Below are positions 100-12,000 of a DNA stretch of 12,000 bases, one piece after another. Each line of letters opens with the position of its first letter. Within the stretch, counting starts at the first letter, position 1. Origin of the DNA: a virus. Taxonomy: Duplodnaviria > Heunggongvirae > Uroviricota > Caudoviricetes. Both the position numbers and the translations under genes were made by a program. The stretch is from the IMG/VR virus record IMGVR_UViG_2660238061_000007; one strand, 5' to 3'. The notes below the pieces were generated by a model. That model was not told the origin of the DNA, made no database searches, and worked only from the letters and a program-made list of their open reading frames with translations.

Positions 100-261
100 T
101 ACTTTTGCGCCTCCCAGCCGGACCGGCGCTGCGGCGTAATACGCGGCAATTTCACCAATCCAGCCGGTCAGCCTTTCCCGCTGCTCCTGACTGTTCGCGC
201 CCAGAATAAAATCCATCGCTGACTGCGTATCCAGCTCACTCTCAATGGTGGCGGCATACAT
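100..261 (-). CDS. Hypothetical protein, N-terminal 54 codons only (truncated by gap)
   Basis: Minus-strand ORF starting with ATG at 261..259 (MYAATIESELDTQSAMDFILGANSQEQRERLTGWIGEIAAYYAAAPVRLGGAKV), running into the N-gap; no family recognised. Confidence 0.3.
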
Positions 262-342
262 CGCCTTTATGAAAAGACAGGAAAAAATAAAATTTAAAAA
301 CAGTACATTACGAATGCTCAGACCTATCGTTTAAAGGAGTCG

Positions 343-363
343 CAATACACACTGCAATACACG
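343..363. repeat. Terminal direct repeats GCAATACACA x2 (candidate integrase arm-type or att-associated sites, left island end)
   Basis: gcaatacacactgcaatacac here is 20/21 identical and co-oriented with gcaatacacattgcaatacac at 11035-11055 beside the integrase gene. Confidence 0.5.
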
Positions 364-699
364 ATTATTTATAAGATGAGCGGCATCCGTCATAAAGCTG
401 GTGGATGCTTTTTCTATGCATATATGCACAGTTTTAGTGGGCGTTAATGTCGATATAGGGATCCCCATATCGAGATTGGATACCTGGCTTTTTTCCGGTT
501 AACCTTTAATCAGGCTGGTGGGCTTTACCTGTTTTGTATGAGTGGTCATCATGACCATGTCATAACAAAAACCCCATATTCGTGGTTTTTCTGTGTCGGG
601 CTATTCTGTCGTTGCTGTGCTGATTTGGCTGGTGGGCTGAATCATCATTACGGCGATGCAGCTATGTAGACGTTCCGGCCTCCTCAAATTGAGGATTGT

Positions 700-830
700 G
701 GAAGAATCAATGGGTTAGTCTTACTTTCCCGACATCCCCCAATGGGGGTTTTCGAAACAATCAATAGCTTAGGCTTACTTCCCCGATTTCCTGCATTGCA
801 GGTTTTCGAAATAATCAATGGGTTAGGCCA
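700..830. repeat. About 2.5 copies of a ~54-bp tandem repeat, each copy containing a short GC-stem palindrome
   Basis: Unit GGTTTTCGAAA(C/T)AATCAAT(A/G)G(C/G)TTAGGC at 746-774 and 800-828, partial copy at 700-719; spacers TTACTT(T)CCCGA... are also related; palindromes CCCCCAATGGGGG (735-747), CCTGCATTGCAGG (789-801), GTGCAATTTTGCAC (835-848). Confidence 0.7.
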
Positions 831-1076
831 TCGTGCAATTTTGCACTTTGCCAGCCAGCGCAATGTCGCGTTATCAGTCCTCAGATGTGAGGGATGTAGC
901 CAGCTTTTCCCCCAGTGGGGGATATCCAGCACCGACGGCTTAACTGTGCGTGCCAGCACAAGGTAGCCTTGAACTACTTACTGCATCCCATCTTACAGGC
1001 CGTGCCTTCCTGCTTAACTTTTTGCAATGCAACAAGTCAGCCAGCGCAATTTTGCGTTATCGGGAATATCAGCAAG

Positions 1077-1358
1077 TTACCGCCGCAATCGTTCCGGCTT
1101 CTTCCACTGGTAAGTATTTTTCGCGCTCTCCCTCCGTTGTTGAGAACGGCGACGATATGCCAGCAACTCAAGGACTCTTGTTCGTATGTTGCGCATATCC
1201 ACGCCGTTAAGCTCAATACCGTCACGGCGCATCACCTCAGCCACTACACGCACATAATTATCTGCGGTCACGCTGTCCGGCTGCGTGGCCTGTTCGTCAT
1301 GCTGCTTGCTGATTCCACAAGCACGGCGGATTAATCGCAGTATTTCGGATTCAGTCAT
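1077..1358 (-). CDS. Hypothetical small basic protein (93 aa) downstream of terS
   Basis: Protein-like composition (MTESEILRLIRRACGISKQHDEQ...), same strand and operon position as terS; competing plus-strand ORFs are low-complexity. No confident family. Confidence 0.45.
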   Translation of the reverse strand: MTESEILRLIRRACGISKQHDEQATQPDSVTADNYVRVVAEVMRRDGIELNGVDMRNIRTRVLELLAYRRRSQQRRESAKNTYQWKKPERLRR

Positions 1359-1440
1359 AGCGTACTACGTTACTTATCTTTATTCGGCTGCAACTTATCC
1401 GGTACGTTTCCGGCAGTTTCCATCAGATAATCGGACAGCA

Positions 1441-1911
1441 TCAGCGGTATGTTTTCGTCAAGTTTTGCGCATGCGTTACAGGCTCTGATAACTTCTTTTT
1501 CAGTCCATCCAGCATAGACGGCTTCATGTCGGGAAACTTCCTTGTCATGGCAAGCGGCAGGCTGTCCATGATTGAAGAAATCTGACTCGCCAATTTTGAA
1601 AGCACGTATATACAAAACGCTGTATCAATAACGTCGCCGCGTTCGCGCTCGTTTTTAAGCTCCTGCGCCTCTGCCTGTGCTGTCAGCAATCTGATCCTGA
1701 CTCGTAGGAGTTCATCATCATCAATCTCGCCTTTGTCGTCTGTAATCTGGTTAATTGCATTGCTAACCCGATTGTCTATTACGCTGGCAACATCATAAAA
1801 CGCCTCGCGGCCTTTACGTTCAACGGGAGTCACTCCCCACTTGTCGAACGCTGTCGCACTTACACGGCAGCTTTGCGCCATGTTTTTTTTGTTCATCAGG
1901 TGCGATTTCAT
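1441..1911 (-). CDS. Small terminase subunit, lambda Nu1-like
   Basis: Translation aligns by eye with lambda Nu1: LLTAQAEAQELKNERERGDVIDTAFCIYVLSKLASQISSIMDSLPLAMTRKFPDM versus lambda LTRAQADAQELKNARDSAEVVETAFCTFVLSRIAGEIASILDGLPLSVQRRFPEL; N-terminal MNKK motif also shared. Start is ambiguous (ATG at 1923, 1911 or 1896); 1911 has the best SD (GGGGA). Lies about 130 bp downstream of a cosN. Confidence 0.9.
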   Translation of the reverse strand: MKSHLMNKKNMAQSCRVSATAFDKWGVTPVERKGREAFYDVASVIDNRVSNAINQITDDKGEIDDDELLRVRIRLLTAQAEAQELKNERERGDVIDTAFCIYVLSKLASQISSIMDSLPLAMTRKFPDMKPSMLDGLKKKLSEPVTHAQNLTKTYR

Positions 1912-2022
1912 CAATATCCCCACTTAAGTAATGTTTCAGGTTGGTGTATTGGCTTTATCTTTTCCTTTTTATTCATAGAGATAGAGCGAACAACAAAACC
2001 ACCACCAGCACCCGAAAAAGGC

Positions 2023-2061
2023 TCATAAATAGCGAAAACCCGCGAGGTCGCCGCCCCGTAG
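2023..2061 (-). other. cos: Lambda-type cos site (cosN with 12-nt cohesive end GGGCGGCGACCT)
   Basis: Minus strand reads CTACGGGGCGGCGACCTCGCGGGTTTTCGCTATTTATGA, matching the remembered lambda cos junction over about 37 nt; positioned immediately upstream of the Nu1-like gene as in lambda. Confidence 0.85.
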
Positions 2062-2112
2062 CCTACCGGATCGCCGGAAAGGACCCGCCAGCCAGAACGG
2101 GCCCTAATTTCA

Positions 2113-2496
2113 TCAACCAATCAACTTATAGCGACCATCCCGTGCATTGCGACGTACACGCTCAATCTTGAGGCATAGCGCCGCATCTGGCTTTTTTGGG
2201 ACAGGTACGCGGCAATATTCAGAAGATCGAGGAATATTGTTTATCCAGTCGATCACTTCACTTAAATACCAGGCCTTACGCCCTTCCGTAACCTGCACAC
2301 GCTCCGGGAACTCTCCACTAGCCTCAAGGTTTAGCAATGTGCGACGGCTAAGGGTAGTAAGTTCCATCACCTGATTCATATCAACAAGGCGTTCACTTAA
2401 ACGCATTTTGTCAGCAATAGCCTTTAATTCCTCTACTGCTGGATCCGGATACATCATTTCGGCAATTGGCTTAAGGTCATTGTAATGATTCTGCAT
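2113..2496 (-). CDS. AlpA/Xis-family HTH protein with N-terminal extension (127 aa)
   Basis: Central segment MELTTLSRRTLLNLEASGEFPERVQVTEGRKAWYLSEVIDWI fits the AlpA-type HTH pattern; strong SD (AGGGGGA) 4-5 nt upstream of the ATG, 11 nt after the gpD-like stop. Confidence 0.7.
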   Translation of the reverse strand: MQNHYNDLKPIAEMMYPDPAVEELKAIADKMRLSERLVDMNQVMELTTLSRRTLLNLEASGEFPERVQVTEGRKAWYLSEVIDWINNIPRSSEYCRVPVPKKPDAALCLKIERVRRNARDGRYKLIG

Positions 2497-2507
2497 TGTA
2501 TCCCCCT

Positions 2508-2849
2508 TTACACACGAGCCAGCGGCTGAACAGAAATACCTGAGCCAACAAACGCGGCAACCTTTGCCGACAGTTCTTTTACAGACTCAGGCCAGTTCAG
2601 AGCATCAACATTTAAAACACCTGTCTTATAAACCTGTGCCTGTGTTTTTTTCGCTGTGTCGATTTGTACAGCGGAAACATAAACCGCTTTACCTACGCTC
2701 GAACCATCCCATACCACCAGTGCACCTGTTGCATCTTCCTGCATCAGTGGCGTAAATGCAGGAATTACCCCTTTATTAGCTGAAAATATCCCCAGCGTAG
2801 TCACCAGTGCTTCAGTGCCAGCCATGAGTTCAGTGTAATGAGTAGCCAT
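2508..2849 (-). CDS. Head decoration protein, lambda gpD-like
   Basis: Shared motifs with lambda D by eye: TPLM, VVWDG (lambda VAWDG), YKTG (YKSG), NWPE (LWPE), AAFVGSGISV (TAFAGTAISIV); similar length (113 aa); SD GGGGGAG upstream. Confidence 0.8.
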   Translation of the reverse strand: MATHYTELMAGTEALVTTLGIFSANKGVIPAFTPLMQEDATGALVVWDGSSVGKAVYVSAVQIDTAKKTQAQVYKTGVLNVDALNWPESVKELSAKVAAFVGSGISVQPLARV

Positions 2850-2858
2850 TGCTCCCCC

Positions 2859-3905
2859 TTAGCCAATGCGAACGGTAACAAAACGATTGATGCGGGCCGG
2901 TATTGGCTGTGGTGCTGAATGTGTCTGCACATATTCAATAGCCGGATCACCAGGCACAATATAGTTTTTCGGTGCAAGTTCGGCTTTAGTCAGCCCCATT
3001 CGGATTAGCTCCGGATCCTGAATACCGCCATAGGCGACAATCCCCTGAAGAGCCGTATTGCCAAGCACCATCAAATCAGGATCAAGGAAATGTTTTTCTG
3101 TTCCGTCCTCGTCGGTATAACGCCCGCTGTAAACAACAATCGCAACATCGCCCATATACCCTTTAAAACTCACCGAATCACCAAGGTCTTTAAGGGCCGT
3201 TTCCAGTTCGGAATTAGAACCACGACGGGTATCCAAAGCCTCTTTTATCGCTCTGAATGAACGGTATTTCTTCCATACATTACCACCCATAATGATGATA
3301 TTAGTGACGCCCTCACTAAATTCTGCGTAGCTCTCAATATCATCATTTGGATCAAAAGTTTCTTTATCCTTACCTGACCACTCAGTACCGCCAGACTGAG
3401 TGATGATATTTTGTGGTTTTATATTCCAGTCCAGCTCATAACGTTCAATACCATCGCCCTCAATGATATTTTTCCCCGTTGTGATTGCCTGAACAGCAAG
3501 CCATTCAATACGTGCACGAATAGCTTTAGCCTGATTTACAATCGCCTGTTTAACTTTAATATTACGTGCCCCAAAAGCATTGTATTGCTCAGGTGATACA
3601 CCAGCAGGGCGCACAGCTAACTTATTTGGATCAATGCTGCTTTTCGGCTTCATATAGCCTGGACGAATTGTTTTTGATTCGTACCCTTCGTCACGTGAAA
3701 CTTTACTACCCACCATAGGAGAACAAAACGCTGCAATTGGGATATTTGGATCGTCGATTGTATCAAGAATAATATCGCGCGATTCAAACATTACCGAGCG
3801 AGTAAAAAACAAACTGGTAAACAACGCATTTAGTTGTTTTTGTACATCTACAGCATTAACCACCTGTACAAGCTGAGTAGGCGAATATAAATCAACCATA
3901 CGCAT
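2859..3905 (-). CDS. Major capsid protein, lambda gpE-like
   Basis: Strong similarity by eye to lambda E: NIITQSGGTEWSGKDKETFDPNDDIESYA versus NITQSGGTEWSKRDKSTYDPTDDIEAYA; DTRRGSNSELETALKDLG and GDVAIVVYSG and MVLGNT conserved. Start set at the internal Met (MRMVDLYSPTQL, like lambda MSMYTTAQLL) with SD AAGAGG; the ORF-track extension to 4112 is judged non-coding. Alternative start 3899. Confidence 0.9.
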   Translation of the reverse strand: MRMVDLYSPTQLVQVVNAVDVQKQLNALFTSLFFTRSVMFESRDIILDTIDDPNIPIAAFCSPMVGSKVSRDEGYESKTIRPGYMKPKSSIDPNKLAVRPAGVSPEQYNAFGARNIKVKQAIVNQAKAIRARIEWLAVQAITTGKNIIEGDGIERYELDWNIKPQNIITQSGGTEWSGKDKETFDPNDDIESYAEFSEGVTNIIIMGGNVWKKYRSFRAIKEALDTRRGSNSELETALKDLGDSVSFKGYMGDVAIVVYSGRYTDEDGTEKHFLDPDLMVLGNTALQGIVAYGGIQDPELIRMGLTKAELAPKNYIVPGDPAIEYVQTHSAPQPIPARINRFVTVRIG

Positions 3906-4073
3906 CCTCTTTGCATTCATTAAAAATAATTGTGGATATATGCTACCACCGATATTTGTCATGCGAACACATGCAACCGAGTGCAATGTTGTATAAAGTT
4001 TTGGGGTGACAACTTCAGTGCGGACAATTAGTGTTAATATCTTCACTCCCTTTGGTCGGGATTTATGTAGCAT

Positions 4074-4107
4074 GCCGGAAAATTTATTTTTTCCGGCCTT
4101 TTTTATT
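4074..4107. terminator. Hairpin with T-run (intrinsic-terminator-like) between ssb and the capsid gene
   Basis: GCCGGAAAA (4074-4082), loop TTTATT, TTTTCCGGC (4089-4097), followed by CTTTTTTATT on the plus strand; the minus-strand reading lacks a U-run, so the strand of action is uncertain. Confidence 0.4.
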
Positions 4108-4115
4108 GGCAATAT

Positions 4116-4565
4116 TTAAAACGGGATATCATCTCCCCATTGCTCATTATCTCCCACTGGTGGCTGGCTTCCTTGCTGATCTGCCTGTTGTTTTGCTCTG
4201 TTCAGTTCGTCAGTAGCCTGCCCCTGTTGGCCTTTTTTGCCGCCCGGTCGCGCCGTTCGCGCACTGATTACGCTGTCTGCGATAACCTGCCAGCCCCGCC
4301 GCGTTTCGCCGTTCTGGCCTGTCCACTGGCTTACCTGCATGTTACCCGCCACGCTCACCAGTTCGCCTTTGTGGTGTTTTGCCAGTGCGTCGGCCTGTCT
4401 GCCAAACGCCAGGACGGATAACCACATCGTCGCCGTTCCGTCATCTGCCTGGCTGCACGGCAGGGGAACCGCCATACTCGCCATCGCCATTTGTGTCCCT
4501 TTGCTGGTGGTCTTTAACTGCGGGTCAGCCACCAGCCGCCCGTAAGCCGCTATCTGTGCTGTCAT
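4116..4565 (-). CDS. ssb: Single-stranded DNA-binding protein (SSB)
   Basis: C-terminal acidic tip ...WGDDIPF as in E. coli SSB (DDDIPF); OB-fold region resembles SSB; Gly/Gln-rich linker. Start overlaps the upstream ORF stop (ATGA). Confidence 0.85.
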   Translation of the reverse strand: MTAQIAAYGRLVADPQLKTTSKGTQMAMASMAVPLPCSQADDGTATMWLSVLAFGRQADALAKHHKGELVSVAGNMQVSQWTGQNGETRRGWQVIADSVISARTARPGGKKGQQGQATDELNRAKQQADQQGSQPPVGDNEQWGDDIPF

Positions 4566-4876
4566 GCTGTCTGCTCTCCGGTTTTAACATTGATGGTTGT
4601 CACCTGTTCCGCTTCGGCAATCTCCCGTTCTGTCAGCGTGGCAAAGTTTGCCGCTGCTGTGGTCATGAATGCGCTTATCAGGTCGGGATGTTCCTTCGCG
4701 TATCCTGCCCGTGTGTGGTGGTCTATCGCTTTGATTGCCACCTTTAAGGAAAGCTCTGTCATGTCTAACGCTTTATATTTTGCCTGTGTTCTGTCTCTGC
4801 GAATTTTGGTCATTTGTCGCCCCTGATTCATGTTTTCGGCTGGCATGTTTATTAAGTGATTTTTATGTATGCGCAT
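4562..4876 (-). CDS. Hypothetical protein (up to 104 aa), translationally coupled to ssb
   Basis: ORF with ATGA overlap to the ssb start; no recognised family; start uncertain (internal Mets at residues 11, 16, 22). Confidence 0.45.
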   Translation of the reverse strand: MRIHKNHLINMPAENMNQGRQMTKIRRDRTQAKYKALDMTELSLKVAIKAIDHHTRAGYAKEHPDLISAFMTTAAANFATLTEREIAEAEQVTTINVKTGEQTA

Positions 4877-4925
4877 TTATTTTCACCCCCCCCTCGTTTA
4901 AAAAGTTTTTAGTTGTGCCTCCCCC

Positions 4926-5145
4926 CCTCTACCCATCTACCCGAATGCTCATCATGTCAGTAATGGCGCGGCTTTCAGCGGGTAGATAGCTTTTTGACTC
5001 CTCTACCTGCCGTCTACCCTGCTACCTGAAACTGATAAAATCAGGTAGAAGAGGTAGAGAGCTTTTATTAGCCTTCTACCTAGCCCTATACCCACTTATC
5101 ATGTTGAATAATATGCGTTTATTTTGTTCAGGTAGATGGGGTAGA
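4926..5145. repeat. ori: Iteron-type replication origin (about 11 copies of GGTAGA/TCTACC, often in tandem pairs)
   Basis: ctctacccatctaccc (4926-4942), ggtagata (4981), ctctacctgccgtctaccc (5001-5019), ggtagaagaggtagaga (5043-5059), ttctacct (5076), ggtagatggggtagatgg (5132-5149); flanked by AT-rich and poly-C tracts; immediately 3' of the primase gene. Confidence 0.7.
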
Positions 5146-5161
5146 TGGCTTTTACAAAAAA

Positions 5162-6916
5162 TTATAAAAACGCGTCGCAATCGTCTGTTGTAATTGCGTT
5201 GGTCTGCGTTACTCCCTTAACTTTTCGCGTAATATATTCATGCCCGTAAACTTTCGCCGCTGGCTTCATGGCCTTGCTGAACTCAGCCACGTTTAGCGGT
5301 TTGCTCCTGCCCGCGTATGCCATAAACGCCAGATAGACGCGGTAAAGGCTGTTCCTGGTCGTGTACTTCACTGAATCACCACCGCCACCCATCATCAGGC
5401 CGCGCGCTTCCTCCAGAAAATTCAGGAACTGGCAAAACTCAATAACCGGATCCGTCTGTTGCTTTATTGCCAGTGCTTCATCACCGTCACGCTGTTCCAG
5501 TAGTAAAGCCCGTGCCTTCTCAGGGTCGGTAAAGTTCGCCAGCAATCGGCGGATAATAACGGGGATTTCAGCCGCAATCTTTTCCGGTAGCTCCCTGTCT
5601 TTTTCGGCCTCACTGACGATATTGTCGAAACGGAAAATCACGCGACGACGTGCCACACCTCCGGCCCGTTCGGTGAATATCATCGGGTTGTTGTTGGTCG
5701 CCAGCACCACCGCCCTGATTACCGCCGTGAAACGCTTTTCATATTTCGGGTTAATTTCCACGGGGTCGCCGCCTGTGATTTTCTTGATGCCCGTTCCTTC
5801 GCCTGTATATTTCGGCTGGTCAGCCAGGACGATAAGACGACTCCCGACAACCTGCGCACGTCCACCAGCATCATCAAGCGATGTCATTTCAGCGCTTACC
5901 GTGTTCTGTTTCCCTGCCAGAAGGCTGGCTATGTGTGTGAATGTACTTTTACCGCTCCCGCCGTCTCCGGTGGCCTCAATAAACATCTGCCAGTCGTACC
6001 GGTTCGCCATAATCATGTACAGCGCGGCACATATACGCATCATCTTGCGCGGGTCTTTTCCGGCTGCGTGCTCAAGCCATTTATGAAAGTTTGGCGCGTT
6101 ATCGCGGATGTTCTCCCCTGGTGCTGGTGGCGTGTACTCAATGCCGTTGTGCGTGGTGATCCAGTTCTCCGGCGTGTGCGGGGAAAATTCCCCCGTTTTC
6201 AGGTCAAGCGCACCATTGGCGAACGGCAGCAAATCGCCAGACGGCTCGCCCATTGGTTCGGCAATAACTTTTAACGCTTCCACGGCGTTATTGATTACGC
6301 GCTTGCTGAAAGTGGCCCTGTGCTCTGAATAGATCGCCACCATTTCGCGGCTAAGTTCCATTGTGCTGACCGGACACCATACCCCGCCGCGCCATACGTG
6401 AACGATTTCACTTTCAGGATGTACGCAAACGCCATCAAAGCGATCGGCAAGCAACTGCGCGCGCTCACTGTCCGCCATCTGCGAAAGTTGCGCCTTTTGC
6501 TTTACCGGAAGCTCAATGACCAGACCATCAGAAAGATTCTGGCGTTCACGGGCCAGATATTCGCGCCAGTTCTGCACCTCCTGGCCGTGCATACCCTCAG
6601 GATAAAAATTTGCATCCTGTACGCCTGCTGCCGCCAGCTTCTGACCAATCGCCTTTATCATTACAGGCGCAAGATATCCGGCCCTGTATATGCGTGCTGA
6701 TTTTCGGCCTTCCGGCACAATTTGCAGATTATCCAGTTCGGATAGCTGCTGCTCCCCAAGCCACACAGGAGGCTCATTATCTCCGGCCATACGCGCATCA
6801 TGTTCCTGCCATTGTTTCGCGTGTGCCCAGGCATCACTACCCGCAAAAATAATGACTTCTGTTCCTTTGTGTTTTATGCCGCGTGACTGCTGTTTTACGT
6901 TCGGTGCCAGTTTCAT
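5162..6916 (-). CDS. P4-family primase/helicase (SF3 helicase-like P-loop NTPase), replication initiator
   Basis: 584-aa ORF with Walker A GDGGSGKST and a D5/P4 primase C-terminal-like region; SD GAGGT 6 nt upstream; followed by the iteron ori, the typical pri-ori layout of PICI/P4-like satellites. Confidence 0.85.
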   Translation of the reverse strand: MKLAPNVKQQSRGIKHKGTEVIIFAGSDAWAHAKQWQEHDARMAGDNEPPVWLGEQQLSELDNLQIVPEGRKSARIYRAGYLAPVMIKAIGQKLAAAGVQDANFYPEGMHGQEVQNWREYLARERQNLSDGLVIELPVKQKAQLSQMADSERAQLLADRFDGVCVHPESEIVHVWRGGVWCPVSTMELSREMVAIYSEHRATFSKRVINNAVEALKVIAEPMGEPSGDLLPFANGALDLKTGEFSPHTPENWITTHNGIEYTPPAPGENIRDNAPNFHKWLEHAAGKDPRKMMRICAALYMIMANRYDWQMFIEATGDGGSGKSTFTHIASLLAGKQNTVSAEMTSLDDAGGRAQVVGSRLIVLADQPKYTGEGTGIKKITGGDPVEINPKYEKRFTAVIRAVVLATNNNPMIFTERAGGVARRRVIFRFDNIVSEAEKDRELPEKIAAEIPVIIRRLLANFTDPEKARALLLEQRDGDEALAIKQQTDPVIEFCQFLNFLEEARGLMMGGGGDSVKYTTRNSLYRVYLAFMAYAGRSKPLNVAEFSKAMKPAAKVYGHEYITRKVKGVTQTNAITTDDCDAFL

Positions 6917-7212
6917 TTTTTACCTCTGAATCCGTTAATCATGGTTTTCATTTTCTGGATATTTCCCCACGCTTTTTCCCTGCTGATGGGCTTACTGCGG
7001 GGTGCGGCATATACCAGGGGAAAATCACGCCGGAACTGATAAACAGGCATCACGCAGTCATAGCTATACCCCTCACGGCGGTAAGTGATGCGCCGTTCTG
7101 CCACGCCTTTAATCGTTACCGTGCCGCCGTATTTATCGCGGTAAATATCGCCGTTCATAAATTCAGGTCGAGCGGGGCCGCTGGCAATAAAGCCAGAATT
7201 TTTCATTTCCAT
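6913..7212 (-). CDS. Hypothetical protein (99 aa), stop overlaps the primase start (ATGA)
   Basis: Translational coupling to the primase; SD-like GAGGAA upstream; no family recognised. Confidence 0.55.
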   Translation of the reverse strand: MEMKNSGFIASGPARPEFMNGDIYRDKYGGTVTIKGVAERRITYRREGYSYDCVMPVYQFRRDFPLVYAAPRSKPISREKAWGNIQKMKTMINGFRGKK

Positions 7213-7229
7213 ATTATTTATTCCTCGAC

Positions 7230-7451
7230 TTAACTCGACTTATTTGATAGCAGGGCACTATTTATTGCGTCATTGAGTTTTTCTGCTGATTCATCAATAA
7301 GTGACAACAGGCCATAAGCAATATTTGCATCTTCATTGTCATTTATGCAATCAAGCCACATATTTAATATTGCTTTTGCTGAATTATTTAAAGTTAATGA
7401 ACTTTCTGCACATGCTAACAATTTAAAAAAGACTTCCCGTTCTGTATTCAT
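7230..7451 (-). CDS. Hypothetical small acidic protein (73 aa) in an AT-rich block
   Basis: SD GGGGGA 4-5 nt upstream; stop of the upstream ORF directly abuts the ATG (TAAATG); local composition visibly more AT-rich than neighbours. Confidence 0.5.
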   Translation of the reverse strand: MNTEREVFFKLLACAESSLTLNNSAKAILNMWLDCINDNEDANIAYGLLSLIDESAEKLNDAINSALLSNKSS

Positions 7452-7643
7452 TTAATCCCCCACCAGCTTACTTTCTTCCTCAATCAAAAAACTAGCGACA
7501 CTTCCCGAAAGACGCGCCAGTAGGCTCGCCAGTGCGGATATATCAGCATCTGTAATTTTGTTCGGGTATACCTCAAGAAGGCGGCAAATAATTTCTGTCT
7601 GGTGCGCACGTTCAGCGGCTTCGTGTAATGTAATTTCCTGCAT
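7452..7643 (-). CDS. Hypothetical small acidic protein (63 aa)
   Basis: SD AGAGGTG upstream; start overlaps the upstream stop (TAATG); part of the coupled operon. Confidence 0.5.
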   Translation of the reverse strand: MQEITLHEAAERAHQTEIICRLLEVYPNKITDADISALASLLARLSGSVASFLIEEESKLVGD

Positions 7644-7828
7644 TAATGCACCTCTTTTAATTCATACACTGCTGAAATAATGACTTGTGATAAGCCATAT
7701 TCTGATGATTCGCTTCTCACCGCAGCAATAGCCGTCTGAACATTAACAGCCTTCACATTCTGAGCGATACCAATTGTGTGGCCTATTGGGTTAACAGCTC
7801 GGGCAAATACACGGAAGGTTTTAAGCAT
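7643..7828 (-). CDS. Hypothetical small protein (61 aa), first gene of the operon ending in the primase
   Basis: SD GGGAG 7 nt upstream of the ATG; preceded by a roughly 380-bp regulatory intergenic region. Confidence 0.5.
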   Translation of the reverse strand: MLKTFRVFARAVNPIGHTIGIAQNVKAVNVQTAIAAVRSESSEYGLSQVIISAVYELKEVH

Positions 7829-8047
7829 GACTCACTCCCTGGCGGATTTTTGCAGCGAATACAGCAACACAACCGGACGGGCAACGGCTACGCGCTTCGC
7901 GTTCCGTCCAGGCGGTTACGTGGATGATTTGAGATTCTCCGGCACTCAGTGCCAGAAAACGCCACACAAAGGCCGTTTGTGTGTGTACAAGGTGTGGTAT
8001 ATGATTTACAGCAACCATAACGGCTCCTAGTTTACGTTGTTGGTTAG

Positions 8048-8090
8048 ACGCCCCGTATGTGTTCCCAGCACTGCGGGGCGTTGCTCTTTG
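8048..8090 (+). terminator. GC-stem hairpin with downstream T-rich tract (terminator-like or regulatory structure)
   Basis: ACGCCCCG (8048-8055), 18-nt loop, CGGGGCGT (8074-8081), then TGCTCTTTGTATTTC. Confidence 0.3.
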
Positions 8091-8109
8091 TATTTCAACA
8101 ATCCTTTCG

Positions 8110-8188
8110 GTGTGTTTCATGTTATGAGCGCATGAAACACACGTCAAGGCTTTTTGTATTTCTTTTTTTGTGTATACTGAAACACACC
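8110..8188. promoter_or_regulatory. Operator/promoter region: perfect 12-bp inverted repeat plus a third half-site overlapping a -10-like TATACT
   Basis: GTGTGTTTCATG (8110-8121), 9-bp spacer, CATGAAACACAC (8131-8142); TGAAACACAC again at 8179-8188 next to TATACT (8173-8178); SD AGGAG 8 nt before the ATG at 8209. Confidence 0.6.
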
Positions 8189-8208
8189 GATGATTAGGAG
8201 TTTCAGAA

Positions 8209-8514
8209 ATGGCAACGGCTAACAAAAACGCAAAATCACAACTGACAACTGTCAGAGTCCCACTAGATGTTATGCAAGGGATGGAATCCGTTAAGCTGGA
8301 CGGTGAAAGCAATGCCGGATTTATCGTAACCGCCATGCGCGGAGAAATAGCCCGCCGCCAAGCAGAAGGCAGCGGAGAAAATCCCCTTGTGTCGTCACTG
8401 GATGCCCTGGCTAAGGTCGAACAAATCGGCATCAAAGCAGCCGAGGAGATCGGGCAACTCGTCACCGTCGCGCGTGAAGAACTCCAGCGACGCAAGGTCA
8501 AAGAGCATGAATAG
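8209..8514 (+). CDS. Putative ribbon-helix-helix DNA-binding protein (101 aa), candidate island regulator
   Basis: Excellent SD (AGGAG, 8-nt spacing); N-terminal LTTVRVPLDVMQGMESVKLDGESNAGFIVTAMRGEIARR fits a beta-strand/helix/helix RHH pattern; transcribed divergently from the small-gene/primase operon, beside palindromic operators. Confidence 0.55.
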   Translation: MATANKNAKSQLTTVRVPLDVMQGMESVKLDGESNAGFIVTAMRGEIARRQAEGSGENPLVSSLDALAKVEQIGIKAAEEIGQLVTVAREELQRRKVKEHE

Positions 8515-8571
8515 CCAATATCAGCGCCATAGTTTGAGGAACGCAGGCGCATTGCTTTACAGGACAGCACC

Positions 8572-8751
8572 ATGAGCGACACAGAATCAACCAAAACACC
8601 ATCACCAACTCGTAAGAGACGACGCAAAAATATAGCGCATGAACATGAATCAGAAAGATTCGCACCTTGTTCGTTTGCTCTTGAGAAATTCCTTAAAGAG
8701 CACAGGAAAAAGCTCTCGTTGCAAACCTTGGAACGAACCAAATCTGACTGA
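8572..8751 (+). CDS. Hypothetical small basic protein (59 aa)
   Basis: ORF below the 60-aa track cutoff, found by manual translation (MSDTESTKTPSPTRKRRRKNIAHEHE...); AGGA 7 nt upstream; followed by an intrinsic terminator. Confidence 0.35.
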   Translation: MSDTESTKTPSPTRKRRRKNIAHEHESERFAPCSFALEKFLKEHRKKLSLQTLERTKSD

Positions 8752-8817
8752 TCACATTGCCCACCAGCCGCAAATGTGGCATTGTTGGTGATGCTTTTGT
8801 TTTCCCTTGTTCCCACT

Positions 8818-8847
8818 GGCGACCCTTTTGCGGTCGCCTTTGTTTTG
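8818..8847 (+). terminator. Rho-independent terminator of the plus-strand two-gene unit
   Basis: GGCGACC (8818-8824), loop CTTTTGC, GGTCGCC (8832-8838), then TTTGTTTTG. Confidence 0.6.
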
Positions 8848-9426
8848 TCACTGAATGCGGTTACCAAAGTAAAACTCAGGCTGATATTCACGTATCAGCG
8901 TTTTTTCTTCTTCCTCCAGCTCACGCTTTTTGCGCTTACATGCCTGTAGCTCCCTCCCCTTCTCGCTGGCACTTATTTGATATTGCTCTTTACGGCGGGA
9001 AAAATCCTGTAATGCACCCCACGGGATACCATAAGTCCCCGTTTTTCTGATACCTGGTATCACATTTCTGAATACCCAGTTACTGAAACGATGAGCAAAT
9101 GTGCCAGGCGTCGTTGCTTTGCGGCTGCGGGCTATTAGTTTGTAGAAACCTGACTCAGAGATAATTCTCATATTCTGATTTCCTCCTGGGGTGTAAGTTA
9201 AATTTACTCCCTTTTCATCATCATCAAGCATCTGCAACGCCGTACGCGAATTGGTTAGTTCCAGCGCAGCACAAACATCTTTTGCAACAAACCACGGATC
9301 GCCGTTCAGATACACCACACGAACGTTCACACTATCAAAGCGCAGAACGACGAGATCACGAATATCGCAGAATTTTTTCACTGGACGAGCGTACCCCTTG
9401 CCCGTCACGGCAATATTTTTATTCAT
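8848..9426 (-). CDS. Bro-N domain protein (putative antirepressor-like)
   Basis: Bro-N hallmark segments VRVVYLNGDPWFVAKDVCAALEL, GGNQNMRIISESGFYKLIARSRK and FSNWVFRNVIPGIRKTGTY. Confidence 0.8.
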   Translation of the reverse strand: MNKNIAVTGKGYARPVKKFCDIRDLVVLRFDSVNVRVVYLNGDPWFVAKDVCAALELTNSRTALQMLDDDEKGVNLTYTPGGNQNMRIISESGFYKLIARSRKATTPGTFAHRFSNWVFRNVIPGIRKTGTYGIPWGALQDFSRRKEQYQISASEKGRELQACKRKKRELEEEEKTLIREYQPEFYFGNRIQ

Positions 9427-9444
9427 CGCGTTTTTACCTTATAG

Positions 9445-9470
9445 ACAAAAAACCCCTCGTGATGAGGGGC
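9445..9470 (-). terminator. Rho-independent terminator after alpA
   Basis: Minus strand reads GCCCCTC ATCAC GAGGGG TTTTTTGT, located between the alpA stop (9483) and the Bro-N start (9426). Confidence 0.55.
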
Positions 9471-9482
9471 ATTATTTACTGG

Positions 9483-9740
9483 TTATTGCTGTTTTGTTTT
9501 TCCAGGTTTCCATCCAGGATGCCACTCACCACGGATCCATGCCTGAACCTCTGAAAGTCGATACCCTGCAGCACGTTCACCGATCTTGATACGTCGCGGG
9601 AATTTACCTGCCTGCTCCATTTTCCAGCGTGTTGAGTTTGCCAGCGTGGTAAGTGCTATGCACTCTTTTTCACGAATGAACCGATCAATGTCCTTCATTG
9701 TGCGCAAATCGTTTTCATCAACAAGAGAATAAATTGCCAT
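9483..9740 (-). CDS. alpA: AlpA-family transcriptional regulator/excisionase-like HTH protein
   Basis: 85-aa protein with AlpA-type HTH (ALTTLANSTRWKMEQAGKFPRRIKIGERAAGYRLSEVQAWI); start 1 nt after the integrase stop, the typical int-alpA pairing of P4-like/PICI elements. Confidence 0.8.
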   Translation of the reverse strand: MAIYSLVDENDLRTMKDIDRFIREKECIALTTLANSTRWKMEQAGKFPRRIKIGERAAGYRLSEVQAWIRGEWHPGWKPGKTKQQ

Positions 9741-9741
9741 A

Positions 9742-10983
9742 TCACACCACCTCTTTATTAAGCTCGATAACGTTGTTGTTAAATCCTGCTATCGTATTAA
9801 GGTAATTAACCCACATATTAAGCACCTCAAGTTTTTTCTTTATATGCCTGCTTTTATTGTAAACACCAGCAACCCCTTTCACTTTATGACCTAAAAGAAG
9901 TTCGACAATATAAGGATCCGCCCCCATATCATTAAGCGTAGTGGAAAATGTGCGCCTGAAATCATGTATGCACCACAAGCCATTAGTATCATGACCAAGA
10001 CGCCTGCATATTCTGTTTGCAGCCCCTGTTATTGTCGCCCTTTGCAAAGCACAACCGACAACATAACCGCGATTTTTTGTTTCTGCGTAAAGATTAACGA
10101 TCCATTGTTTTATTCCGTCAGGAACAGGCCTTACTATAGCCTCCTTGTTTTTGCTGTGCTCTTTTGGGACTGTCCATACCCAGTTTTTTAAATCCCATTC
10201 GTCCCAGGTGGATAGCCTCGCCTCCTGCTGTCGGCAACCAAACACCAGGCAGATAACCATTATTCTTCGGTTATATATTGATGACAGAGTTAGCAAATTA
10301 TTACCGTAAGCATAAGACCATACATCAGCGGTTTCATTGATATTAAGAACGCGATCCCTTATACCGGATGAGCGCCCGACATAACTTACGTTAATATCTC
10401 CAAAGGGATCGCACGCGATGTATTGCCTGACGCGACAAAAACGCAACGCCTGTTTGATATCAAGAAAAATTGCACCAGACATAACAGGCGCATTTTTTTT
10501 GATCCTGTCAAAGACGGTAAGCCATGTGTGTAATTTGCACTGTTCTATAGCCATATCACCGATATAGGGGAAGATATGCTTTTCAAATCGTTTTATTAAA
10601 TATTCATGCTCTTTTCTGGCTGTTGTGGCGTGATTGTCGTACCAGTAAAACAGCGCATCCCTTACGGTCACTGGTTGCATAGTTTTTTCGGCAGCAAGTT
10701 TTATTTGCCTGCGGGGGTCCAGATTTTCAGCCAGCCATTCACGGCACTGATCACGCATGCGCCTGGCCGTTGCAAGAGACATGTCAGGATAGCGACCAAG
10801 TGTAAGCCATACCGGAGGGGATTCCCTGCCACCAAGACGATAGTAAAAAACAAAGCTGATCCCCCCAACCATGCTTACACGCACAGACAACCCGCGCCCA
10901 TCCGCTATTGTTTTTTGTTTGTCCTGCCGTTTTCCGACAAGACTCTTTAACAGTTTGTCACTGAGTTTGTTTTCAATAGCCAT
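9742..10983 (-). CDS. int: P4-type tyrosine integrase
   Basis: 413 aa; P4-family N-terminus (DKLLKSLVGKRQDKQKTIADGRGLSVRV...LGRYPDMSLATARRMRD) and catalytic-region motifs (HDFRRTF, LLGHK, Y near C-terminus); SD GAGGG upstream. Confidence 0.95.
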   Translation of the reverse strand: MAIENKLSDKLLKSLVGKRQDKQKTIADGRGLSVRVSMVGGISFVFYYRLGGRESPPVWLTLGRYPDMSLATARRMRDQCREWLAENLDPRRQIKLAAEKTMQPVTVRDALFYWYDNHATTARKEHEYLIKRFEKHIFPYIGDMAIEQCKLHTWLTVFDRIKKNAPVMSGAIFLDIKQALRFCRVRQYIACDPFGDINVSYVGRSSGIRDRVLNINETADVWSYAYGNNLLTLSSIYNRRIMVICLVFGCRQQEARLSTWDEWDLKNWVWTVPKEHSKNKEAIVRPVPDGIKQWIVNLYAETKNRGYVVGCALQRATITGAANRICRRLGHDTNGLWCIHDFRRTFSTTLNDMGADPYIVELLLGHKVKGVAGVYNKSRHIKKKLEVLNMWVNYLNTIAGFNNNVIELNKEVV

Positions 10984-11003
10984 TAAAAGCCCTCAAGAGA
11001 TTT

Positions 11004-11056
11004 GCAATACACACCCATCCCGATCGCCAATTTGCAATACACATTGCAATACACAA
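11004..11056. repeat. Three copies of TTGCAATACACA beside the int promoter (candidate integrase arm-type or att-associated sites, right island end)
   Basis: gatttgcaatacacacc (11004-11020) and gcaatacacattgcaatacac (11035-11055), co-oriented with the copies at 343-363. Confidence 0.5.
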
Positions 11057-11245
11057 AACCGCGAAAAACTGGAAGGGTGATGAACGGTCATCAAAAGCAT
11101 GGAAAACGACATTCCAGACGCAGCAAGGGTTTCAGTGGAGTTGGCGAACGATGCGGGCAACTACGGTGAGATGATAGACATAAATCGCCTTCACAATGGC
11201 GCTCTGCAGCTGCGTGTTCTGCAGCGTGTCGAGCATCTTCATCTG

Positions 11246-11255
11246 NNNNNNNNNN
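11246..11255. other. Assembly gap (N10)
   Basis: Run of 10 N. Confidence 0.9.
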
Positions 11256-11309
11256 ATTGTAATGACAACGTTTCGCGGCTATTCTTGTATTGTTTGGATG
11301 CAAGAATGG

Positions 11310-11360
11310 CCCCCGTGGTGTTGTCAGGTGCATACCTGCAACGTGCGGGGGTTTTCTCTC
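11310..11360 (+). terminator. GC-rich stem-loop followed by a T-run (terminator-like)
   Basis: CCCCCG...CAGGT GCAT ACCTG...CGGGGG followed by TTTTCTCTC. Confidence 0.4.
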
Positions 11361-11618
11361 TCCAGCAACCAATGCCACCAGGGATTAAGCCCCCGCAACA
11401 TTGCGCCTCACCGGAATCCTTCCGGCTTGACGCTGATTCTACGACTGTTTTTCTGTTCCGGAATCCGTCTCATCTTCACTCTGTGCTGCGCATTCCGCAG
11501 AATATTATCCGCTTGCAACCGTTGCATTTTTCTTACGAAAAAGGCCGCAGAGTTTCACCCCTGCGGCCTGGTCCGGGCGCAAATTGCCATTACGGCAGCC
11601 TGACGCCCGCATGACACG

Positions 11619-11726
11619 TTACTTCCGCTTATTCAGCCAGTTCACGATCATACTGGCAAGAATGCCAGCAATGACCGGAGCCGCTAAATCATGCCAGAAG
11701 GCCATGCCCAGTTCTGCGAGCGTCAT
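11619..11726 (-). CDS. ldr: Ldr-family type I toxin peptide (35 aa)
   Basis: Translation MTLAELGMAFWHDLAAPVIAGILASMIVNWLNKRK closely resembles remembered E. coli Ldr peptides (LdrD-like). The start codon abuts the N-gap, so the 5' leader and antisense Rdl region are not visible. Confidence 0.65.
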   Translation of the reverse strand: MTLAELGMAFWHDLAAPVIAGILASMIVNWLNKRK

Positions 11727-11736
11727 NNNNNNNNNN
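11727..11736. other. Assembly gap (N10)
   Basis: Run of 10 N; the FII-like reading frame does not continue across it. Confidence 0.9.
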
Positions 11737-12000
11737 GAAATTTTCCTCACCGATGGTCAGCGTGTCTCCACGCCGCAGCTGCCGCGCATCATCAGTCCGG
11801 ACAAACAGGGACGGGCTGGAGCCTTCAACGCGCACGCCCTGTCCGGCATAGCTGATATTTTCAGGGTCATCAAAAACACCACGTATCACCGCACCTGACT
11901 GCTCACCGGATGTAATGGTGGCTGACGTTCCCATGTACCCGCGTATCGTTTCATCGGCGCGGGCAATGGCAGCATCGAACAGGTTATCGAAATCAGCCAC
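11737..12000 (-). CDS. FII: Lambda FII-like head-tail joining protein, partial (first 88 codons, truncated at gap)
   Basis: Translation (M/V)ADFDNLFDAAIARADETIRGYMGTSATITSGEQSGAVIRGVFDDPENISYAGQGVRVEGSSPSLFVRTDDARQLRRGDTLTIGEENF is near-identical to remembered lambda FII; the first codon at the window edge is GTG. Confidence 0.7.

Follow-up and report, generated by a model that had tools for sequence, protein, structure and literature searches.

The logic by which a satellite carries a small terminase subunit (TerS) of its own is classic for pac-type SaPIs. There the satellite supplies the DNA-recognition subunit and the helper phage supplies the large terminase, TerL (PMC6739421). SaPI TerS acts in headful (pac) packaging in Gram-positives. 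The published mechanism of E. coli cos PICIs relies instead on Rpp, not on TerS (PMC6739421). A terS homologue was noted in some Gram-negative PICIs in 2018 (PMC6092414), and the PICI model of SatelliteFinder takes the small terminase as a core marker, described as redirecting packaging (PMC10085698).

Three described systems are close to the locus analysed here. Helper-embedded PICIs (HE-PICIs) were presented as a class by Tommasini, Mageeney and Williams (NAR Genom Bioinform 2023, PMC10111431), with 491 elements at 14 sites in lambdoid late genes, the portal gene included. That paper gives no packaging analysis; its model element, 11capE, is said to be without terS and has 258 bp of cos in common with its helper at 90% identity. 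In EcCICFT073 (Fillol-Salom 2018/2019; Murialdo and Feiss 2022), the cos1-rppA region has the order MCP, decoration protein, small ORF, cos, packaging-specificity gene, 93-aa gene. Its cosQ and cosN match the helper and its cosB is private; the specificity gene encodes Rpp, a protein of 144 aa with no TerL-binding tail, which borrows helper TerS. The third system is phage N15, whose cosB contains R3-N15, GAGGTTGTTGTT, at bp 48-59 and, within terS about 200 bp distal to it, an inverted rR2 (PMC4669245). The literature searched yielded no experiment on the element described below or on its family, and no study of Gram-negative satellites of cos type that combine an N15-type TerS of their own with a conserved private cosB.

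The window, that is, the whole 12,000-nt stretch of DNA analysed, contains a satellite at 260..11191 on the minus strand, which measures 10,924 bp between the attL and attR cores and has the same orientation as the portal gene that it interrupts. The identity block AAGGCGAT is found at attL (11184..11191, minus strand), within a lambda-B-type portal gene, and again at attR (260..267, minus strand), downstream of which the portal reading frame restarts. These junctions were placed by comparison with uninterrupted portal genes. In NZ_AP045067, a segment of which is 99.955% identical to window positions 100-11245, the element likewise lies between two halves of a "phage portal protein" pseudogene, a lambda-B-type portal gene of a lambdoid prophage. 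Read along the minus strand, the genes start with integrase, AlpA-type HTH, BRO-N, small ORFs, DUF4222, primase and SSB, and continue with a capsid E homologue, a decoration D homologue, a 127-aa AlpA-family protein, cos, terS and a 93-aa ORF.

All genes named in the following are on the minus strand. The tyrosine integrase (413 aa, WP_000963723.1) is encoded at 9742..10983, and the replication zone includes a DNA primase family protein of 584 aa (5162..6916). The major capsid protein of lambda E family (2859..3899; 346 aa per annotation of relatives; Pfam Phage_cap_E, 2e-41) is followed by a 113-aa head decoration protein of lambda D family (2508..2849; Pfam HDPD, 4e-15). Next comes a second AlpA-family HTH protein of 127 aa (2113..2496; Pfam Phage_AlpA, 1e-8; HTH at residues 36-85), whose gene ends 25 nt upstream of cosQ and which occupies this place in all TerS-type satellites examined. 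The 93-aa hypothetical protein (1077..1358) is 76% identical to the product of the gene after rppA in EcCICFT073. A promoter scan of 1000-2600 gave no match above chance.

The original prediction held that the island has no large terminase gene, and indeed no TerL is encoded in it; portal, protease, tail and lysis genes are likewise missing from its gene set. The element resembles HE-PICIs (PMC10111431) in its size, in its zones (int-AlpA, Bro, primase/SSB, and a late zone with capsid E and D homologues), in its co-orientation within a lambdoid late gene (here portal B) and in its short att identity block. The split portal gene with AAGGCGAT at each junction is a feature of HE-PICI sites, and co-oriented int, alpA and primase, a size within about 10-20 kb, a late zone with capsid homologues and the lack of tail and lysis genes are features of Gram-negative PICIs and HE-PICIs. 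Own portal, protease, head-tail connectors and TerL, the set typical of cf-PICIs, are absent from the island, which has only MCP, decoration protein and TerS. Since it lacks TerL, portal, protease, tail and lysis genes, the element is neither a cf-PICI nor a prophage. A remnant of a lambdoid or N15-like prophage is ruled out by the int-AlpA-Bro-primase layout, the precise att sites, the length of 10.9 kb and the lack of tail, lysis and TerL genes. The element is thus a helper-embedded PICI-type satellite within the portal gene of a lambdoid prophage.

The window is a draft assembly in which four contigs are joined by N10 spacers (90-99, 11246-11255 and 11727-11736). The satellite contig comprises 100-11245 only, and 1-89 is without placement. 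Positions 11737-12000 match a lambdoid head-tail joining gene which, in the same helper prophage, comes about 4 kb later. An rdlD antitoxin RNA (Rfam RF01813, 81.7 bits) at 11292-11357 on the plus strand lies in 11256-11726, a small contig of unrelated sequence; it is material of a chromosomal ldr/rdl locus outside the satellite. Within the satellite, a stretch of about 810 bp between the 93-aa gene and attR is unannotated and contains three tandem 54-nt repeats (675-836), all of which include a short hairpin, as well as a pair of 24-nt repeats apart from them (852-875 and 1038-1061). These repeats may be iterons, or they may represent the attP-arm motif whose doubling Tommasini et al. mention.

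It had been noted from the letters alone that about 37 nt of the minus strand match the lambda cos junction. Alignment to lambda NC_001416 bears this out and extends it. The minus strand from 2060 to 2023 reads TACG followed by GGGCGGCGACCTCGCGGGTTTTCGCTATTTATGA, and these 38 nt (TACG and bp 1-34 of the cosN region, with the conserved CGCTATTTATGAG) are identical both to the lambda junction and to cos of the embedding lambdoid helper prophage in related E. coli genomes. By this identity the 12-nt cohesive end is predicted to be GGGCGGCGACCT (2045..2056, minus strand). An additional match was found upstream, at 2067..2088 (minus strand), where a 22-nt cosQ-type block, GCGGGTCCTTTCCGGCGATCCG, is identical to that of the helper, differs from lambda at two positions and is also kept in all satellites compared. 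Past bp +34, identity to lambda and to the helper drops to background. Exact cosN occurs once in the window; the single other match, with two mismatches, is at chance level. The predicted order of cos and then a Nu1-type gene holds as well, with the ATG of a Pfam Phage_Nu1 gene at 1911, 145 bp past the nick.

This gene, terS (1370..1911, minus strand; 180 aa in relatives), is annotated as "terminase small subunit" in RefSeq records of relatives. Its product matches Pfam Phage_Nu1 (PF07471) with 85.8 bits in the intact form and 77.9 bits for the ORF in the window (cut-off 30), the match being limited to its middle and C-terminal part (profile positions 80-162). The phage TerS closest to it in a set of 50,697 phage records is N15 gp1 (47.6% identity over residues 5-167); lambda Nu1 shows 37.8%. 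The likeness is unevenly distributed. The N-terminal 65 aa are 52% identical to N15 gp1 (8e-25), whereas similarity to the DNA-binding domain of lambda Nu1 is weak (5e-5, about 26% identity). The divergence from lambda Nu1 foreseen for this region is therefore that of an N15 gp1-type domain. The motif AFDKWGV-PVE-GRE-F-DV-SV, including the AFDKWGV recognition-helix motif, is common to satellite TerS and N15 gp1, and the linker insertion of lambda is absent. Identity to lambda Nu1 amounts to 55% in the middle region and 39% in the tail; identity of the tail to that of the helper is also about 39%, the Nu1 of the helper prophage being essentially that of lambda and its cosB lambda-like. Judged by these alignments, satellite TerS is composed of an N15-gp1-type DNA-binding domain (a predicted winged-HTH) and a Nu1-type body and tail. 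An AlphaFold2 model built from a 14-sequence alignment was too poor for fold assignment (mean pLDDT 50, below 50 over residues 1-46), and a sequence search of PDB with satellite TerS gave chance matches only.

The C-terminus of the ORF in the window had been taken as naturally shorter than that of lambda Nu1, in the part that contacts gpA in lambda. This part of the original prediction fails: the shortening is due to a private 1-nt frameshift. Over 1,201 nt, the window differs from its best relative, NZ_AP045067, at one site, a missing A in the run at 1496..1500 (minus strand), which is A5 here and A6 in relatives. Because of this missing A, the ORF stops early, at 156 aa (stop at 1441), and the 42 codons left after the frameshift run in the next frame, …EVIRACNACAKLDENIPLMLSDYLMETAGNVPDKLQPNKDK, to 1370. 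This out-of-frame part aligns with the C-terminal tails of lambda Nu1 and N15 gp1; the tail of the family aligns as …IPLMLSDYLMETAG versus …IPGLLSEYIEQSG. The run is A6 in 56/56 complete E. coli genomes carrying the 61-nt stretch, which encode the intact 180-aa protein, and members of the family, tail included, are 169-180 aa long. Intact copies are present, for example, in APEC O2-211 (NZ_CP006834) and JNE23-011 (NZ_AP045067). Programmed frameshifting at this run is ruled out, as A6 is in frame in all relatives. The same A-run frameshift was seen in P0078, a public read assembly with a different terS allele (5 amino-acid differences; out-of-frame tail LSEPVTHAQNLTKTYR), and the run is therefore slippage-prone or error-prone.

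Sequence past cosN was expected to diverge from lambda as an island-specific cosB, and it does. Lambda R3, R2 and R1 sequences are not present in the island cosB, where no repeats were found besides an R3-like and an inverted block. The R3-like element, GGTGGTGGTTTTGTTGTT (1989..2006, minus strand), covers bp 51-68 after the nick, the same position as R3 in lambda and N15. The second conserved block, AATACACCAACCTG (1937..1950, minus strand; bp 107-120), repeats part of the R3-like motif in inverted orientation and lies approximately at the position of the inverted R2 of lambda, as read from the lambda sequence. The cos regions of satellites from E. coli, Kosakonia, Superficieibacter and Citrobacter/Enterobacter were compared. 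In this alignment cosQ, cosN, CGCTATTTATGAG, bp 51-68 and bp 107-120 are conserved, the first cosB block as an invariant GGTGGTGGTKTTGTTRTT in satellites of four genera and the second in the form AATACACCMACYTG, and the stretch between the two blocks drifts. By-eye inspection of this AT-rich spacer revealed no convincing IHF consensus. Conservation of the motifs in four genera, purifying selection on terS and cohesive ends that track local lambdoid phages (see below) all speak for an island-specific site. This cosB is private to the satellite, and it is predicted to be the binding site of its TerS.

Like cosB of N15, the satellite site has a GT-rich R3 at about bp 50-60 and lacks R1 of lambda. 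Unlike in N15, the cohesive end is that of lambda, the R3 core at bp 54-59 is GGTGGT instead of GTTGTT, the inverted block is intergenic and no TerL gene follows terS. The R3-like motif matches R3-N15 at 7/12 positions in register and at 9/12 with a 9-bp shift, and an N15-style rR2 was looked for within terS and not found; N15-like specificity is for these reasons an analogy only. The satellite site is related to, but distinct from, the packaging site of N15 type. An IMG/VR contig of 4868 bp (L071) represents an N15-like phage with an N15-type TerS followed by TerL and with the cohesive end GGGCGGCAGCGT; its sequence at the R3 position, TGGTGGTTGTTGTT, is intermediate between R3-N15 and the satellite motif.

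The other point of comparison is EcCICFT073. We located this element in CFT073 and identified its RppA, which matches RppC (PDB 6HLK) at 5e-31. The arrangement around cos is like that of the satellite, with cosQ and cosN matching the helper and cosB private, and this synteny, together with the 76%-identical 93-aa gene, indicates that the same slot holds either Rpp or TerS. The two elements differ in the ORF that precedes cos: the 137-aa product in EcCICFT073 bears no relation to the 127-aa AlpA-family protein of the satellite. The specificity genes differ too, the satellite having a full Nu1-family TerS. No alignment of satellite TerS with RppA was obtained by BLASTP, hhalign gave a probability of 0.07%, and 6HLK (RppC) was not matched. 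That satellite TerS is itself an Rpp was consequently rejected: it resembles neither RppA nor RppC, and it has 169-180 aa and a Nu1-type tail, compared with 139-154 aa and no TerL-binding tail in Rpp.

A short element is nevertheless common to the two cosB types. EcCICFT073 cos1 (L021:47609-47623) contains ACCACCACC at bp 55-63, the segment for which Murialdo and Feiss report identity among four Rpp-type PICIs. TerS-type satellites keep its reverse complement, GGTGGTGGT, at bp 51-59, so that (ACC)3 of the Rpp type and (GGT)3 of the TerS type lie at nearly equal distance from the nick on opposite strands. By a rough estimate, a given 9-mer on either strand would occur by chance in a 20-bp window about once in 10,000 cases. 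The common (GGT)3/(ACC)3 nonamer hints that one packaging system may have been derived from the other.

Satellites of TerS type were found in 266 of 5,426 complete E. coli genomes (about 5%), and TerS homologues with 57-61% identity occur in Citrobacter, Enterobacter, Kosakonia and Superficieibacter. A scan of species-representative genomes gave four loci, two of them in the clade, with gene context taken from the encoding contigs. Homologues whose context was read are helper-embedded satellites located in capsid gene E, with the module MCP, D, 127-aa AlpA-like protein, cos and TerS, and no TerL; a TerL gene directly after terS, as in phages, is absent in every satellite with this TerS. In the Enterobacter/Citrobacter-type satellites (L012-L015, 10559-11916, minus strand), the 93-aa gene after terS is replaced by FRG-domain and DUF3892 genes in opposite orientation, possibly accessory or defence cargo.

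The terS gene is under purifying selection: pN is far below pS in all pairs, with constraint strongest in the N-terminal domain (pN 0.03 and pS 0.66 there between L012 and L016). The tail is the most variable part of TerS, with 28-40% identity among satellites. TerS of Superficieibacter (L009:10001-10504) is a mosaic, having an N-terminal domain of satellite type together with a middle region 81% and a tail 63% identical to lambda Nu1, which suggests domain-wise exchange, probably by recombination with a helper-type gene. Cohesive ends vary among satellite lineages. For instance, the end GGGCGGCAGCGT is found in Citrobacter satellites and in about 43 lambdoid phage contigs, which carry lambda-type Nu1, TerL and a lambda-like cosB. 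Given this sharing, cosN tracks local phages, while cosB and the DNA-binding domain of TerS stay satellite-specific.

Taken together, these features make it likely that satellite TerS binds the private cosB and recruits helper TerL for cutting and packaging of satellite concatemers. The cassette cosQ-cosN-cosB-terS would work as follows. Satellite TerS, rather than helper TerS, would recognise the private cosB, and its Nu1-type tail would bring in helper TerL (gpA). As cosQ and cosN are those of the helper itself, helper TerL should be able to nick and terminate at satellite cos. Satellite concatemers would then be cut and packaged, and helper TerS would be unable to use satellite cosB. The division of labour would be the one known from SaPIs; in a cos-type element, though, it would require cosN and cosQ compatible with the helper, and the two TerS proteins belong to unrelated families. 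The element also differs from 11capE in that its cosB is unrelated to that of the helper and TerS is present.

Work on phage terminases provides a precedent. Lambda and 21 terminases package DNA with N15 cosB at about 1e-4, and lambda gpA gives full function with a chimeric TerS that joins the N-terminus of N15 to the C-terminus of lambda (Feiss et al. 2015, PMC4669245). The same chimera also packages lambda DNA at about half efficiency (PMC4669245), and strong interference with the helper is therefore not to be assumed. What the sequences show directly is anatomy, homology, conservation, selection and genomic setting; from these features we infer DNA binding, TerL recruitment, packaging and any interference with the helper by satellite TerS. 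Four copies of the element amount to 43.7 kb and would fit a lambda-sized head; with its own capsid and decoration genes, small capsids would be another possibility.

Satellite TerS might instead act mainly in the manner of Rpp. It would associate with helper Nu1 into mixed oligomers by way of the middle domain, which is homologous in the two, and helper terminase would thereby be redirected and poisoned, with satellite TerS not serving as an independent TerS. The precedent of Rpp itself (PMC6739421) points in this direction, as do the position of terS in the rppA slot of EcCICFT073, next to the conserved 93-aa gene, and the middle (oligomerisation) region, with its 55% identity to lambda Nu1 and 81% in one lineage. 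We nonetheless regard this as unlikely, for neither sequence nor profile similarity links satellite TerS to RppA or RppC, and the family retains a full tail of TerL-binding type that Rpp does not have. Because this tail is kept, satellite TerS would need no helper TerS to reach TerL. Such action could also be additional to recruitment of TerL by satellite TerS. Another idea is that terS is a captured phage late gene with no role and that the satellite is packaged by virtue of its helper cosQ/cosN, a route that has been shown for SaPIbov5 and proposed for 11capE. Late zones of HE-PICIs do capture helper late genes (PMC10111431), and lambda transferred EcCICFT073-cos plasmids, at a reduced level, without any island protein (PMC6092414). 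A functionless terS is highly improbable all the same, as the gene is intact in 56/56 complete E. coli genomes, is under purifying selection across genera and is always accompanied by the conserved non-lambda cosB. Nor is it a recent capture, since no phage TerS in the 50,697-record collection is more than 48% identical.

A further explanation concerns this copy alone and leaves the mechanism of the family untouched: the frameshift may be real, with the tail of TerS lost and the island of this strain no longer efficiently mobilised. In that case the window copy would be without the part needed to recruit gpA and should be packaging-defective. That the missing A is the sole difference from the best relative over 1.2 kb, and that the frameshift recurs in the distinct P0078 allele, would fit a genuine deletion. 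Against it, the window is a draft assembly of N10-joined contigs, in which a homopolymer error may occur, and the frameshift allele is present in no complete genome. A dead copy is therefore possible, but we lean slightly towards an intact one.

Binding of private cosB by satellite TerS and recruitment of helper TerL could be placed in a wider frame, which we put forward tentatively and consider rather doubtful as a whole. Gram-negative cos satellites of this type would represent a second, Rpp-independent capture of the lambdoid packaging motor, and a natural counterpart of the lambda-N15 hybrid TerS of Feiss. They would combine a conserved N15-type DNA-binding domain fitted to private cosB, a fast-evolving or recombining tail fitted to the TerL of the local helper, and cosN/cosQ that are copies of those of the helper, with TerS and Rpp cassettes interchangeable at the locus.

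As a caution for annotation, a gene called "terminase small subunit" that lies within an interrupted late gene of a prophage is the mark of an embedded satellite, and the truncated terS ORF of the window is to be read as a frameshift and not as a biological feature. If the proposed mechanism is true, a helper without Nu1 should be able to package TerS-type satellites, in contrast to EcCICFT073. Two satellite solutions would then exist in one genomic slot in E. coli and its relatives, Rpp that borrows helper TerS and a private TerS. With its conserved DNA-binding domain, variable tail and one lineage with a lambda-type body and tail, the family would offer a natural series in which specificity of TerS for cosB and matching of TerS to TerL have evolved separately.
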